Below, one piece after another: positions 31,623 through 34,797 of a stretch of DNA of 64,000 bases. Within the stretch, counting starts at the first letter, position 1. Each line of letters opens with the position of its first letter. Made by a program: the position numbers and the translations under genes. The stretch is from assembly GCA_902535365.1 (NCBI GenBank), contig CACATF010000001.1:68077-132076 (forward strand), read 5' to 3'. This DNA comes from an uncultured SAR86 cluster bacterium (GTDB taxonomy: Bacteria > Pseudomonadota > Gammaproteobacteria > Magnimaribacterales > TMED112). Under the pieces are notes generated by a model. That model ran no database searches, was not told the origin of the DNA, and worked only from the letters and a program-made list of their open reading frames with translations.

Positions 31623-32747
31623 ATGAAAAACACAATTTCCTTACTATTTTTTTTAACAACATCAATTTGGGCATGCAGCAATCCGCAGTCTGATGGTCAT
31701 GGCTCAATTAAAAATATGCAACATGATGAGCATATGATGCACGAAGAGCATGACATGGATCATGCTGATCATATGATGATGCATGACCCGTACCCAGTTG
31801 GTGTTATGGGCAGCTTGCACCACGAAGGTTTTATGTTTTCTATCAAGCATGGGCGCATGACTATGGAGGGCAATATATTGGATGGTGACAACATAGCCAC
31901 GGCAGATATTTTGCAAATGCCAAATCCACTAGGGAACATGCCAGCAAACCTCTCAGTAGTTCCTGAATGCATGGACATGAGCATGACTATGGTTGAGGGT
32001 ATGTATGCTTTTTCTAAGGACATTACCTTTATGTTGATGGGTACATTTATGTCGAAAGATATGACGCTTAATACATTTGCACCGATGATGAATAGAGATC
32101 TGCTTGGCCAGTTCAACACATCATCTTCAGACTTATCTGAATTAACATTTAGCACTCTGTTTAGAATTGCACAGCATGGGCCATCACAATGGCACGGTGA
32201 AGTTGCCTATCAAAAATCAGTGGGAGCAAATGACCAAAAAGACACCGTCTTAACACCTATGAATATGATGATGGAAATGGTGTTGCCGTATGGCATGCAA
32301 AGCGGTGATGGTGCCTCTAGATTAATTCTTGGTATAACCAACACAAGAAAAATAAATGAAAAACTTACTTGGGGCAATCAGTTAAAAAGAAATGCTGTAT
32401 TAGATAAAAAAGATTGGTCATATGGAAATCGTACAGAGCTGAACTCTTGGCTTCAATATCCTCTTAACGAGACAGTCAACCTGTCTTCAAGACTTAAGTT
32501 TGTAAGCCAAGGCGCAATTTCTGGCAACAGCCCATTAATTAGCGCTCCCGTCCAAACAGCAAACCCGGCAAACTATGGTGGAGAAGAGCTGCACTTGGGC
32601 TTTGGGGCAAACTTCAAGCTCAATATTTTTCCAGACGGCAATGATGTGCTGGGCATTGAAATCTTAACGCCACTGATGCAAGACAAAAACAACCTACAAA
32701 TGAAAACAGACTACCAAGTTATTGTTGGGTACCAAAAAAGTTTTTAG
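31623..32747 (+). CDS. Met/His-rich putative outer-membrane beta-barrel protein
   Basis: Signal peptide with a possible lipobox (IWAC). N-terminal tract HGSIKNMQHDEHMMHEEHDMDHADHMMMHD. About 33 Met in 374 aa by my count. Amphipathic strand patterns and a C-terminal VGYQKSF (terminal Phe) are typical of OMP beta-signals. Confidence 0.7.
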   Translation: MKNTISLLFFLTTSIWACSNPQSDGHGSIKNMQHDEHMMHEEHDMDHADHMMMHDPYPVGVMGSLHHEGFMFSIKHGRMTMEGNILDGDNIATADILQMPNPLGNMPANLSVVPECMDMSMTMVEGMYAFSKDITFMLMGTFMSKDMTLNTFAPMMNRDLLGQFNTSSSDLSELTFSTLFRIAQHGPSQWHGEVAYQKSVGANDQKDTVLTPMNMMMEMVLPYGMQSGDGASRLILGITNTRKINEKLTWGNQLKRNAVLDKKDWSYGNRTELNSWLQYPLNETVNLSSRLKFVSQGAISGNSPLISAPVQTANPANYGGEELHLGFGANFKLNIFPDGNDVLGIEILTPLMQDKNNLQMKTDYQVIVGYQKSF

Positions 32748-32755
32748 AGTCTCGA

Positions 32756-33115
32756 TTGAAAAAAATTAACCTTAAATCTAAATTTTCCAAGTTTAACGAC
32801 CTCTGGTCACCAAAAGTTATTGCTGAGATGAATGATTATCAATTCAAGCTCGTAAAAATCAAAAATGATTTTACATGGCATGCACATGAAGACACAGATG
32901 AAGTATTTATTGTCATTGAGGGGAGCATGCAGATAGAGTTTGAAGATGAAACCATTGAGCTTAATGAGGGTGAAATGTATGTGGTGCCCGCAGGCAAGCT
33001 TCATAAACCTCTCGCTCCCAAAGAAGCTAAAATCATGCTAGTTGAGCCAAAAGGAGTTGTTAATACTGGCAATAAAGTTAATGAGCTAACAGCTGAAAAC
33101 GATCAGTGGATCTGA
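32756..33115 (+). CDS. Small cupin-domain protein
   Basis: 119 aa with cupin motifs WHAHEDTDEVFIVIEG and GEMYVVPAGKLHKP. TTG start 8 nt after the barrel gene stop. Confidence 0.75.
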   Translation: MKKINLKSKFSKFNDLWSPKVIAEMNDYQFKLVKIKNDFTWHAHEDTDEVFIVIEGSMQIEFEDETIELNEGEMYVVPAGKLHKPLAPKEAKIMLVEPKGVVNTGNKVNELTAENDQWI

Positions 33116-33121
33116 TGCTTG

Positions 33122-33337
33122 TTACTCAGGCAAAACAAACAAGTCCTCAACAGAACATTTAAGAGTCTTGGCTATCTTTAATGCCAAGACTGTTGATGGC
33201 ACATAAACACCATTTTCTATTGAGTTGATGCTCACTCTAGAAACCCCTGCCTTTTCAGAGAGTGCCTGCTGGGTTAAACCAGCAGACATACGAATAGTTT
33301 CTAAATTATTAAGAAGCTTTCTGTGATCTTTGCCCAA
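33122..33337 (-). CDS. XRE-family helix-turn-helix transcriptional regulator (71 aa)
   Basis: The HTH_3 pattern LTQQALSEKAGVSRVSINSIENGVYVPSTVLALKIAKTLKCSVEDLF resembles short Cro/CI-type regulators that follow small membrane proteins. Confidence 0.8.
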   Translation of the reverse strand: MGKDHRKLLNNLETIRMSAGLTQQALSEKAGVSRVSINSIENGVYVPSTVLALKIAKTLKCSVEDLFVLPE

Positions 33338-33348
33338 AGTTCGCCTTC

Positions 33349-33765
33349 TTACCTCTTTTCAAAATCTTCAACTGCCTTGTTAATCTCATCACTTTCTCTC
33401 GGATAAAGATAACCAGCAATAAGAAGCCCTATACCTATAGTGAAAACGAGGGCTCCAACACCTTTTAAGATATCACCAAAAAAAAAGATACCAAAGAGAA
33501 ACAAACCTATTCCTGTAAATGCTGTAGTTACACCATCTTTTCTGTAATCTCGAGGGCTTTTTTTATCCTCTTTAAAACTAGCCAATAAATCTTCAACAAC
33601 AGCAGGATCTTCAATGTTTTTACTCACTTCAATCATGGCATTGTATTTTTCCTTCCTTTCTTTTGCTTGGAAAGAAAAGACTATAAAAATAATAGCAACT
33701 GGTAGAAGCGCACCAATGTACGCAACACCAACGCCCAAAACTGCAACAAGATTATCTTCATTCAT
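33349..33765 (-). CDS. Membrane protein partner of the XRE regulator (138 aa)
   Basis: One N-terminal TM, a charged middle segment and two C-terminal Gly/Phe-rich TMs. AAGGAG lies 6 nt upstream of the ATG. Its stop is 11 nt before the HTH gene. Confidence 0.6.
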   Translation of the reverse strand: MNEDNLVAVLGVGVAYIGALLPVAIIFIVFSFQAKERKEKYNAMIEVSKNIEDPAVVEDLLASFKEDKKSPRDYRKDGVTTAFTGIGLFLFGIFFFGDILKGVGALVFTIGIGLLIAGYLYPRESDEINKAVEDFEKR

Positions 33766-33784
33766 TTTGCACTCCTTATGAATG

Positions 33785-33802
33785 TGTAAAGTATACCTTA
33801 CA
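33785..33802. promoter_or_regulatory. 18-bp palindromic operator, copy 1 (TGTAAAGTATACCTTACA)
   Basis: Half-sites TGTAAAGTA and TGTAAGGTA around a central GTATAC. On the minus strand it contains TATACT, a likely -10 for the membrane-protein/XRE operon. Confidence 0.6.
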
Positions 33803-33811
33803 TTTAATGAA

Positions 33812-33829
33812 TGTAAAGTATACCTTACA
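33812..33829. promoter_or_regulatory. 18-bp palindromic operator, copy 2 (TGTAAAGTATACCTTACA)
   Basis: Identical to copy 1 and 27 bp away. Its minus-strand TTTACA lies 16 nt upstream of the TATACT in copy 1, which is -35/-10 geometry. Confidence 0.6.
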
Positions 33830-33837
33830 TTAATAAA

Positions 33838-33866
33838 TTGGCACGCAAGCTATTTCGCAATAAAAT
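33838..33866 (+). promoter_or_regulatory. Putative sigma70 promoter for the dioxygenase gene (TTGGCA-17 nt-TAAAAT)
   Basis: By eye. It starts 8 nt downstream of operator copy 2 and lies about 40 nt upstream of the ATG at 33905. Confidence 0.35.
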
Positions 33867-33904
33867 TAAACTGTGGGTATGTGCAAAATTTTATTTGGGG
33901 CAAT

Positions 33905-34591
33905 ATGATTGAACAGTTTTTTGATCAATCCAGTTCGTCCTTTACTTATTTGGTCTCTTCCAGCAAGCATAATGCTTTCATCATTGATCCTGTTAAAGAA
34001 AATAACGAGATCTACATTGAGTATCTTGACCAACACCAACTCAATCTCAACTTCATTCTAGAAACCCACACTCACGCTGATCATGTCACCGGTTCAGGTG
34101 CGCTGATTGACATGTTTGGCTGCAAAACTTTTTGTGGCATGGTCTCTGATAACACCAACATTGAAACACTTCATGATGGCCAAGAAATCTTGTTAGATGA
34201 TTTAAGCATTCAGGCCATATACACACCTGGTCACACCGATGATTCTTATTCATACCTGCTCAAGTCTTCTGAAAACACTTATTTGTTTTCTGGTGACACC
34301 CTGCTAATTAATGGCTGCGGTAGAACAGACTTTCAGAATGGTGATCCTGAACAGCTCTACGATTCAATCACGCAGAAACTATTTTCATTAGACGCTGATA
34401 CCATTGTTTTCCCTGGGCATGACTACAATAATGCAACAAGCACAACTATTGCAGACCAAAAAGAGACCAACCCAAGACTAGTCAACAAATCCAAAGATCA
34501 ATTTATTGAAATAATGAATAATCTAAACTTGCCCACACCAAAACTTATGGATGTAGCGGTGCCATTAAACCTAAAACTGGGAAAAGAGTAG
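33905..34591 (+). CDS. ETHE1-like persulfide dioxygenase (MBL fold)
   Basis: Key motifs are FFDQSSSSFTYLV, HTHADHVTG, YTPGHTDDS, LLINGCGRTDFQNGDPEQLY, FPGHDY and ETNPRL, which match sulfur dioxygenase-type metallo-beta-lactamases. The track ORF (33782) is extended artificially through the operator repeats. Confidence 0.85.
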   Translation: MIEQFFDQSSSSFTYLVSSSKHNAFIIDPVKENNEIYIEYLDQHQLNLNFILETHTHADHVTGSGALIDMFGCKTFCGMVSDNTNIETLHDGQEILLDDLSIQAIYTPGHTDDSYSYLLKSSENTYLFSGDTLLINGCGRTDFQNGDPEQLYDSITQKLFSLDADTIVFPGHDYNNATSTTIADQKETNPRLVNKSKDQFIEIMNNLNLPTPKLMDVAVPLNLKLGKE

Positions 34592-34797
34592 TGTCAAAAT
34601 TTAATTTTTTCTTAGTTTGGGTCTTTGGCTTCTTCGCGCTGCTATCATTTGATCTTTTTGTTGAGGCTTTTGTGTTTGAGTGGCTTGCATGGAATGGCAC
34701 TGACAAAAATGATTGGTTCTTTGTTTTGTGGTGGGGTTGTGTTGTTGTTTGGTTCATTTATGGAATCAAACGGATATTTTTTAAAAATAGTTTATGA
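34591..34797 (+). CDS. Hypothetical Trp/Phe-rich small membrane protein (68 aa)
   Basis: The GTG start overlaps the dioxygenase stop by 1 nt. Two TM spans. Confidence 0.4.
   Translation: MSKFNFFLVWVFGFFALLSFDLFVEAFVFEWLAWNGTDKNDWFFVLWWGCVVVWFIYGIKRIFFKNSL

Follow-up and report, generated by a model that had tools for sequence, protein, structure and literature searches.

Results and Discussion

Two identical palindromes ahead of a DUF6249-XRE operon

The stretch of DNA considered here (the window) comprises 64,000 nucleotides of contig CACATF010000001.1 from an uncultured bacterium of the SAR86 cluster. On its minus strand lies a two-gene operon that encodes a membrane protein of the DUF6249 family and a 71-amino-acid (aa) regulator of the XRE family, a small helix-turn-helix (HTH) protein. 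An 18-bp palindrome lies in two copies, boxes 1 and 2, just upstream of the first gene, and we consider it likely that these are operator sites of the operon's own regulator. The features of the operon, all on the minus strand, are as follows.

33812..33831, minus strand: box 1, predicted promoter-distal operator; the operon strand reads AATGTAAGGTATACTTTACA, and the 3′ hexamer TTTACA (33817-33812) is the proposed -35
33785..33804, minus strand: box 2, predicted promoter-proximal operator, identical to box 1; the central TATACT (33795-33790) is the proposed -10
33772..33777, minus strand: Shine-Dalgarno sequence AAGGAG, 6 nt ahead of the ATG at 33765
33349..33765, minus strand: first operon gene, DUF6249 membrane protein, 138 aa (Pfam PF19762, E 2e-15)
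33122..33337, minus strand: second operon gene, XRE/HTH_3 regulator of the CylR2 type, 71 aa, recognition helix SRVSINSIENG; presumed box-binding repressor

The first-pass annotation of this DNA had described two identical, near-perfect palindromes 27 bp apart, followed by AAGGAG and the ATG of the operon. Reading of the sequence and a pattern search confirmed exact copies of TGTAAAGTATACCTTACA on the plus strand at 33785-33802 and 33812-33829, and both AAGGAG (33777-33772) and the ATG (33765) are present. According to a repeat finder, the copies are identical over 20 nt (TGTAAAGTATACCTTACA followed by TT, thus ending in ACATT) and stand 27 bp apart from start to start. Each box is palindromic at 16 of its 18 positions, the two mismatches to its own reverse complement amounting to one A/C mispair, and the predicted half-site is TGTAA[A/G]GTA, with a 5-N8-5 geometry in the 18-bp box. 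No further TGTAAAGTATACCTTACA site with up to three mismatches was found in the 64-kb window beyond the two boxes; shuffled windows gave a mean of 0.14 matches to the pattern, and none of 100 shuffles reached four. The looser pattern TGTAA-N8-TTACA, allowing one mismatch, yielded a single extra match in the window (45262), which is at chance level. Box 2 lies 19 nt upstream of the DUF6249 start codon, and a GGAG-type motif at the position equivalent to AAGGAG is common in related proteobacterial and Marinimicrobia loci.

The regulator gene follows the DUF6249 gene after a gap of 11 nt. Its product matches HTH_3 (PF01381) over residues 13-66 (E 7.8e-15; 55 bits, cut-off 23), and every match to NCBIfam falls below the cut-off. 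The AlphaFold model (predicted local distance difference test, pLDDT, 85) has five helices in a lambda-repressor-like fold with N- and C-terminal strands. Among its Foldseek neighbours CylR2 came first and a Deinococcus homologue (DR_2454) second, a literature search on the latter giving nothing relevant; restriction-modification controller proteins, lambda repressor, ClgR, HipB, P22 c2, SinR and 434 Cro were further neighbours. CylR2 was also the top solved structure in a profile search (E 1.4e-15), with 45% identity over 60 residues (BLASTP) and a template modelling (TM) score of 0.80/0.86 against the AlphaFold model.

Conservation of the operon and its boxes across phyla

We scanned one genome per species with the regulator, which gave at least 441 loci, and examined the best 80 (73-99% identical) together with the window, 81 loci in all. 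These 80 loci come from SAR86 and other Gammaproteobacteria, Flavobacteriaceae and other Bacteroidota, Balneolaceae, Marinimicrobia, Hellea and a few other groups. The closest relatives of the regulator show 79-100% identity to it, and that of the SAR86 locus L001 is 99% identical. A DUF6249 gene adjoins the regulator gene in 79 of the 80 loci.

About 70 of the 81 loci have a pair of 18-bp boxes just ahead of the first gene, on the operon strand, as counted with a consensus drawn from these same loci; most of the remainder have too little upstream DNA. From start to start the boxes are 27 bp apart in 41 loci and 28 bp apart in 18 (range 24-36), and the end of box 2 usually lies 13-25 nt ahead of the first start codon. 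An alignment of non-identical loci on box 1 gave an information profile that came near its maximum within the boxes, whereas the 9-bp spacer and the flanks on either side scored low. Few other matches to the box consensus occur in the 5-kb loci, and the strong ones belong to additional modules of the same kind. Across phyla the boxes keep their sequence, number, spacing and position, and their variation goes along with that of a residue of the recognition helix, as described below.

The two products of the operon are conserved to different degrees. Across Proteobacteria, Bacteroidota, Balneolaceae, Marinimicrobia and others, the regulator retains 73-99% identity (L001-L080; HTH gene at about 2501-2713 of each locus), whereas for the co-encoded DUF6249 protein identity drops to about 40-55% beyond the SAR86 clade. 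Either the DNA-binding protein is under very strong constraint, or the cassette has been transferred repeatedly. At 138 aa, the DUF6249 protein of the window is without an N-terminal extension of about 40 aa (MNLKKQIEEIKEF…) that its closest relatives, L001-L004 (167-190 aa; 1959-2489 in L001), possess, and despite this difference box 2 stands equally far from the start codon (19-20 nt) in the window and in L001-L004.

Several loci carry more than one module. In L060 (2832-3541), a second HTH gene, of the K type defined below, stands behind a gene for a different, 141-aa membrane protein and has its own pair of type-B boxes. In the Polaribacter-like loci L061 (1215-1873) and L067 (2863-3508), an adjacent second module consists of a 126-128-aa membrane protein without a Pfam match and a 66-aa CylR2-like HTH protein, and it is preceded by its own two TGTAA-N8-TTACA boxes, 40 bp apart. 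Tandem DUF6249 paralogues occur in L040, L057, L059 and L078, and some loci have a third small membrane-protein ORF. In L016 (about 2056-2095), L036 (about 2055-2095) and L065 (about 2067-2100), box 2 is separated from the ribosome-binding site by a longer leader, which contains an extra palindrome of the type GTGTGAC...GTCACAC.

Box type follows residue 35 of the regulator

The recognition helices of the regulators fall into two types. Regulators with 'VSRVSIN' (Val35; V type) are accompanied by near-perfect palindromes of the TGTAA(A/G)GTATACTTTACA type, which may also be summarised as TGTAA(A/G)...TTTACA, in every locus with enough upstream DNA; this set comprises eight genome loci, namely the window, L001-L004 (SAR86-like) and L008, L010 and L039 (Marinimicrobia), as well as the metagenome loci L088, L125, L137, L138 and L159. 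Regulators with 'VSRKSIN' (Lys35; K type) are accompanied by TGTAAC...GTTACA boxes in 62 of 62 loci. In the K type, box 1 reads TGTAAC(C/G)TTT(A/G)C-TTCTCA and box 2 reads TG(A/T/G)(T/A)A(A/C)(G/C)TTT(G/A)C-GTTACA, so that each pair has strong outer half-sites (TGTAAC and GTTACA) and weaker inner ones. A lysine at C:G where there is a valine at A:T (box position 6) is chemically sensible, and that the box type tracks residue 35 is what would be expected if the linked protein reads the boxes.

Overlap of the boxes with a predicted promoter

The hexamer pair TTTACA-16-TATACT, which had been proposed as the operon promoter from the letters alone, was recovered on the minus strand by a promoter scan (33817-33812, 16 nt, 33795-33790; 10 of 12 positions), which returned eight promoter-like matches in 2 kb where 5.4 were expected. 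The distant twin-box relatives L139, L160 and L110 have TTGACA at the end of box 1 and, 16-17 bp downstream, the TATACT of box 2, in the register of the window, and this supports the -35/-10 assignment. In many single-box relatives, TTGACA is followed after 3 nt by the palindrome, placing the box between TTGACA and the -10. Among the V-type loci, the centre of box 2 reads TAnACT in 12 of 13 (the exception being L138), and the centre of box 1 is more variable. Boxes and core promoter therefore appear to overlap. The predicted transcription start would lie near 33783-33785, which would put box 2 at about -19 to -2 and box 1 at about -46 to -29.

The details of the boxes differ between phyla. Proteobacterial loci have TTTACT in box 1 (24 of 26), a spacing of 27 bp (25 of 26) and a box 2 that starts with TGA or TGG. 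Those of Bacteroidota have TTTG in box 1 (27 of 36), TAnnTTTG in box 2 (31 of 36) and a spacing of 28-32 bp. The promoter grammar of Bacteroidota is -33/-7 (TTTG / TAnnTTTG), and the box features of that phylum fit it.

A proposed mechanism of autorepression, and what weighs against it

The mechanism that we infer, including binding, dimer stoichiometry, the exact -35 and -10 hexamers with their transcription start, and the sign of regulation, would run as follows. One regulator dimer would bind each 18-bp palindrome. Box 1 would hold the -35 (TTTACA) and box 2 the -10 (TATACT) of the sole promoter of the DUF6249-XRE operon, so that occupied boxes would exclude RNA polymerase and the operon would be subject to negative autoregulation. 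More speculatively, by analogy with CylR1/CylR2, the DUF6249 protein may sense a membrane or envelope signal and relieve the repression. In its core, the earlier proposal that the XRE protein regulates its own operon through boxes at the -35 and -10 draws strong comparative support from the cross-phylum footprint, the tracking of box type by the recognition helix, the kinship with CylR2 and its similar palindrome, and the TTGACA-16/17-TATACT relatives; its extension to the divergent gene is not supported, as discussed below. Overall, we judge it probable that the two boxes are sites in the operon promoter at which the CylR2-like protein represses its own synthesis.

Several observations weigh against this interpretation. 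A spacing of 27 bp corresponds to about 2.6 helical turns, which would place the two dimers on different faces of the DNA, unlike simple cooperative binding. The association of Val and Lys with the two box types probably represents about one ancestral split rather than many independent changes, because the V-type proteins are most similar to one another (and to that of the window). A 10/12 hexamer match is common in AT-rich DNA and is by itself weak evidence for a promoter; in L138, a V-type locus, TTTACT stands where the -10 is proposed; and the promoter register is not uniform, as the best -35/-10 in the K type, TTTACT (box 1), 17 bp, TG-n-TAAGTT (box 2), lies about 5 bp further upstream inside the boxes. 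Since the box consensus was built from the loci that were later counted with it, those counts favour the consensus; the footprint profile and the constancy of position are independent of it. Finally, about half of the well-flanked palindromes among the metagenome matches listed (see below) have no such XRE gene nearby.

The palindrome in metagenomes

A scan of metagenomes for TGTAARGTATACYTTACA returned the perfect palindrome TGTAAAGTATACTTTACA in 67 of the 83 matches listed; the pattern specifies 16 bases, and a collection that large should contain some occurrences by chance alone. In 33 of 80 loci among the matches listed (soil, sludge, freshwater and sea), the palindrome has within 1.5 kb a gene for a small CylR2-like XRE protein, which typically contains 'VSRQTI.AIE..KY.PS' and scores 40-150 bits; where at least 1 kb is available on both sides, the proportion among the matches listed is 17 of 35. 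The scan thus shows only an enrichment near XRE genes and a strong excess of perfect palindromes, not a clean regulon. The first-pass annotation had allowed that its proposal would fall if the palindrome were a dispersed repeat at many unrelated loci; this is not the case in the intended sense, the motif being a putative operator type common to a large family and not a junk repeat.

Some of the palindromes stand apart from such regulators. In L109 (about 2647), L132 (about 5353) and L157 (about 9103), TGTAAAGTATACTTTACA lies upstream of dnaK (HSP70, E 1e-250) with TTGACA 3 nt away, a layout like that of the single-box XRE promoters, and no CylR2-like XRE gene was found within 1.5 kb; this palindrome may be a heat-shock operator in some lineage. 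In five marine contigs with a GC content of about 0.36 (L098 4129, L102 3928, L108 2489, L114 2676 and L123 1225), TGTAAAGTATACTTTACA lies between a gene for a 222-aa lambda-P-like protein and one for an HlyD-family adaptor, and in L105 (10669) it adjoins an ABC ATPase gene. These orphan palindromes, next to dnaK or to HlyD/ABC exporter genes, may be targets in trans of regulators of this kind. No homologue of the HlyD and lambda-P-like neighbours was found in the window.

The divergent gene and other neighbours

In the window the XRE gene has DUF6249, cupin and metallo-beta-lactamase (MBL)-fold genes as its neighbours. The MBL-fold gene is divergent from the operon, and its candidate promoter is the following.

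33838..33866, plus strand: candidate promoter TTGGCA-17-TAAAAT of the divergent MBL-fold gene (promoter scan, 10/12)

The first-pass annotation had named this plus-strand promoter, noted the 8 nt that separate it from the distal box, and suggested that the regulator might control the MBL-fold gene as well. Both the hexamer match and the 8-nt distance are as it described. The control of the gene is another matter: TTGGCA-17-TAAAAT is conserved only in the very close relatives L001, L088 and L159, and among the 80 loci the MBL-fold neighbour occurs in L001 alone, in addition to the near-identical metagenome contigs L088 and L159. The upstream neighbours of the other loci are unrelated and of mixed orientation (39 divergent, 32 co-directional), and the distal box would be centred at about -52 of the proposed MBL promoter and would not overlap it. 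Co-regulation of the MBL-fold gene is therefore unsupported, though possible for this clade.

Two further statements concerned the MBL-fold protein itself. Its ORF can be read from 33782, with MCKVYLTFNECKVYLTL encoded through the repeats, and this N-terminal extension had been called spurious. We agree, because the orthologous ORF of L001 is exactly 228 aa long and starts at the equivalent of the ATG at 33905 in the window. The label 'persulfide dioxygenase', by contrast, was only a guess: the protein is below every NCBIfam cut-off (GloB 119 bits, cut-off 200.8; Blh 101 bits, cut-off 625), and it resembles GloB and Blh-type enzymes. Elsewhere in the window, 31623-32747 on the plus strand encodes a 374-aa protein with a Met/His-rich N-terminal region (…MQHDEHMMHEEHDMDHADHMMMHD…) and no Pfam match, which may be a metal-binding envelope protein.

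The DUF6249 family itself appears only as an annotation label, in three papers, in the literature searched, and the palindrome sequence had no match in the papers searched. In other contexts DUF6249 genes have ECF sigma factor or ABC exporter genes as neighbours; in Porphyromonas, one lies beside a MacB-type exporter (PMC12094164).

Alternative explanations

Could the boxes act as RNA rather than as DNA? They might form a hairpin in a 5′ leader that is transcribed from a promoter further upstream and controls translation or stability. The minus-strand RNA of 33840-33763 does fold into a 20-bp box 1:box 2 hairpin (-26.4 kcal/mol, z -7.6), in which the single asymmetry of each box becomes a G-U pair on the operon strand; however, such a hairpin arises automatically from any duplicated palindrome, and a search of 33000-34700 with E up to 1 found no Rfam family, giving only two chance matches to microRNAs. 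What is conserved is sequence (TGTAAC/GTTACA across phyla) and not pairing, position 7 of box 1 (C or G) having no covarying partner. In many relatives there is only one box, which lies between TTGACA and the -10; no conserved promoter was found upstream of box 1, where in several loci the upstream gene ends 9-15 nt before the box and leaves no room for one; and the box type tracks a residue of a DNA-recognition helix. Strong as the fold is, we dismissed the hairpin, which accords neither with the single-box relatives nor with the promoter geometry and shows no covariation of paired positions, and a role of the boxes as RNA seems very unlikely to us. We give still less credence to the idea that some other, unlinked regulator binds the boxes, or that they are a non-regulatory duplicated promoter fragment or repeat. 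An unlinked regulator would fit the palindromes that precede dnaK and HlyD/ABC exporter genes and lack an XRE gene within 1.5 kb, and likewise the well-flanked matches listed, about half of which have none nearby, but the link of the boxes to the DUF6249-XRE operon is nearly universal and position-specific, their type follows the recognition helix of the linked protein, the paralogous modules (L060, L061 and L067) bring boxes of their own, and the window holds no further copies.

The remaining alternatives keep the linked protein as the reader of the boxes and change its role. It might be a dose-dependent switch like the controller (C) proteins of restriction-modification systems, activating from the distal box at low concentration and repressing from the proximal box at high concentration. 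Two palindromes ahead of the regulator's own operon do resemble C-boxes, C.BclI, C.AhdI and C.Esp1396I are among its structural neighbours (TM about 0.65-0.75), GakR, a homologous bacteriocin regulator, is reported to be a positive regulator, and in Marinimicrobia there is a consistent difference between boxes 1 and 2 at position 6 (A versus G), as if their affinities were unequal. With the promoter as read here, however, box 1 would be centred at about -37 and would cover the -35 fully, which favours occlusion over activation by contact; the closest characterised relative, CylR2, is a repressor; and no restriction-modification genes lie nearby. We regard such a switch as unlikely. Less probable again, indeed quite improbable, is a toxin-antitoxin-like pair, with the XRE protein an antitoxin that autoregulates through the palindromes and DUF6249 a membrane-acting toxin. 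The regulator has weak, sub-threshold NCBIfam similarity to the HipB/Y4mF, HigA and MqsA antitoxins, yet these scores are far below the cut-offs (34.2 versus 71.65, 21.8 versus 79 and 18.5 versus 47.7); the 5-N8-5 layout is shared with HipB operators, and the structural neighbour 3omt is annotated as a 'putative antitoxin'. Against this, DUF6249 is not a known toxin family and adjoins ECF sigma factors or ABC exporters elsewhere, and the DUF6249-XRE pair occurs in at least 441 species-representative genomes with a regulator 75-90% identical across phyla, unlike the fast-evolving toxin-antitoxin loci.

Comparison with CylR1/CylR2 and other regulatory pairs

The predicted autorepression by the linked protein would bring the operon close to CylR1/CylR2 of Enterococcus faecalis. 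CylR2 is a repressor that binds the cytolysin promoter (PMC3709268), and its gene shares a transcript with that of CylR1, a putative three-helix membrane protein required for induction (PMC3709268, PMC5454873). The two systems are alike in having a single-domain XRE regulator of about 66-71 aa with the same fold, whose gene follows that of a small multi-pass membrane protein in one operon. For the CylR2 site we relied on the sequence of a cytolysin plasmid (L081) and on reviews. In L081, cylR1 (94 aa) directly precedes cylR2, and just upstream of the cylR1 ribosome-binding site lies the palindrome TTGTCAAGTG-T-CACTTGACAA (also TGTCAAGTG-T-CACTTGACA). This palindrome is probably the 22-bp CylR2 site of Rumpel et al. 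2004. The CylR2 half-site TGTCAAGTG resembles the half-site TGTAAAGTA of the window, although the CylR2 palindrome has one extra central base; CylR1/CylR2 has one prominent palindrome, whereas the operon of the window has two boxes with a half-site spacing 1 bp shorter. CylR1 and DUF6249 are unrelated (BLASTP E 11; CylR1 has no Pfam family). Unlike CylR1/CylR2, moreover, the window operon is associated with no lanthipeptide operon and no peptide signal, its divergent gene encodes an MBL-fold enzyme, and its sole recognisable target is the operon itself. The hosts also differ, being marine Gram-negative and Bacteroidota lineages here and Enterococcus there.

Other known systems share parts of this design. 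The YoaS-YozG operons likewise combine a membrane protein with a small Cro/C1-type HTH protein, and their upstream inverted repeats have been read as autoregulatory operators by bioinformatics only (bioRxiv 10.64898/2026.09.15.751765, September 2026), so that the class of membrane-protein/small-HTH modules is already being recognised bioinformatically. The partner there is DUF2975, whereas the membrane protein of the window matches DUF6249 only, and the YoaS-YozG repeats are diverse in sequence, in contrast to the highly conserved, fixed-spacing pairs of window-type boxes, which appear tied to promoter elements. C proteins resemble the regulator in being small XRE dimers with two adjacent palindromes in their own promoter, and they are its structural neighbours; they differ in box sequence and spacing, and the geometry in the window gives no hint that the distal site would serve for activation. 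The search for restriction-modification genes near the window operon found none. HipB and the phage 434 and P22 Cro/cI proteins, which are also structural neighbours, act as XRE-fold dimers on palindromes that overlap promoter elements, but the window operon has no toxin partner and no phage context. The HipB operator, TATCC-N8-GGATA, has the same 5-N8-5 layout.

Implications

A small XRE dimer that represses its own gene from palindromes within the promoter is a textbook case and, as such, unsurprising. What the analysis adds is a model of the operator at sequence level, for a regulator that keeps 75-90% identity over five or more phyla of mostly uncultured marine bacteria, and a tie between the uncharacterised membrane family DUF6249 and a regulatory pair like CylR1/CylR2. 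It also provides a clean candidate specificity pair, Val35 with A:T and Lys35 with C:G at box position 6, and what would be one promoter-operator design fitted to two promoter grammars, and it corrects the start of the neighbouring MBL-fold gene.

A wider interpretation is possible, although we hold it tentatively and think it more doubtful than not. The operon may be a phosphorelay-free cassette of the CylR1/CylR2 type, a membrane sensor and a repressor with a self-contained promoter-operator that has been retuned by phylum, and TGTAAAGTATACTTTACA may be the shared operator of the CylR2-like family. If so, this cassette would be widely distributed among the abundant bacterioplankton of the sea (SAR86, Flavobacteriaceae, Marinimicrobia and others), travelling with its own promoter-operator, and its boxes would double as the -35 and -10 in Proteobacteria and as the -33 and -7 (TTTG / TAnnTTTG) in Bacteroidota, retuned to the sigma factor of each. 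Should TGTAAAGTATACTTTACA be the shared operator of this very large family, the regulons of its members would be predictable from sequence, with dnaK and the HlyD/ABC exporter genes as candidates.

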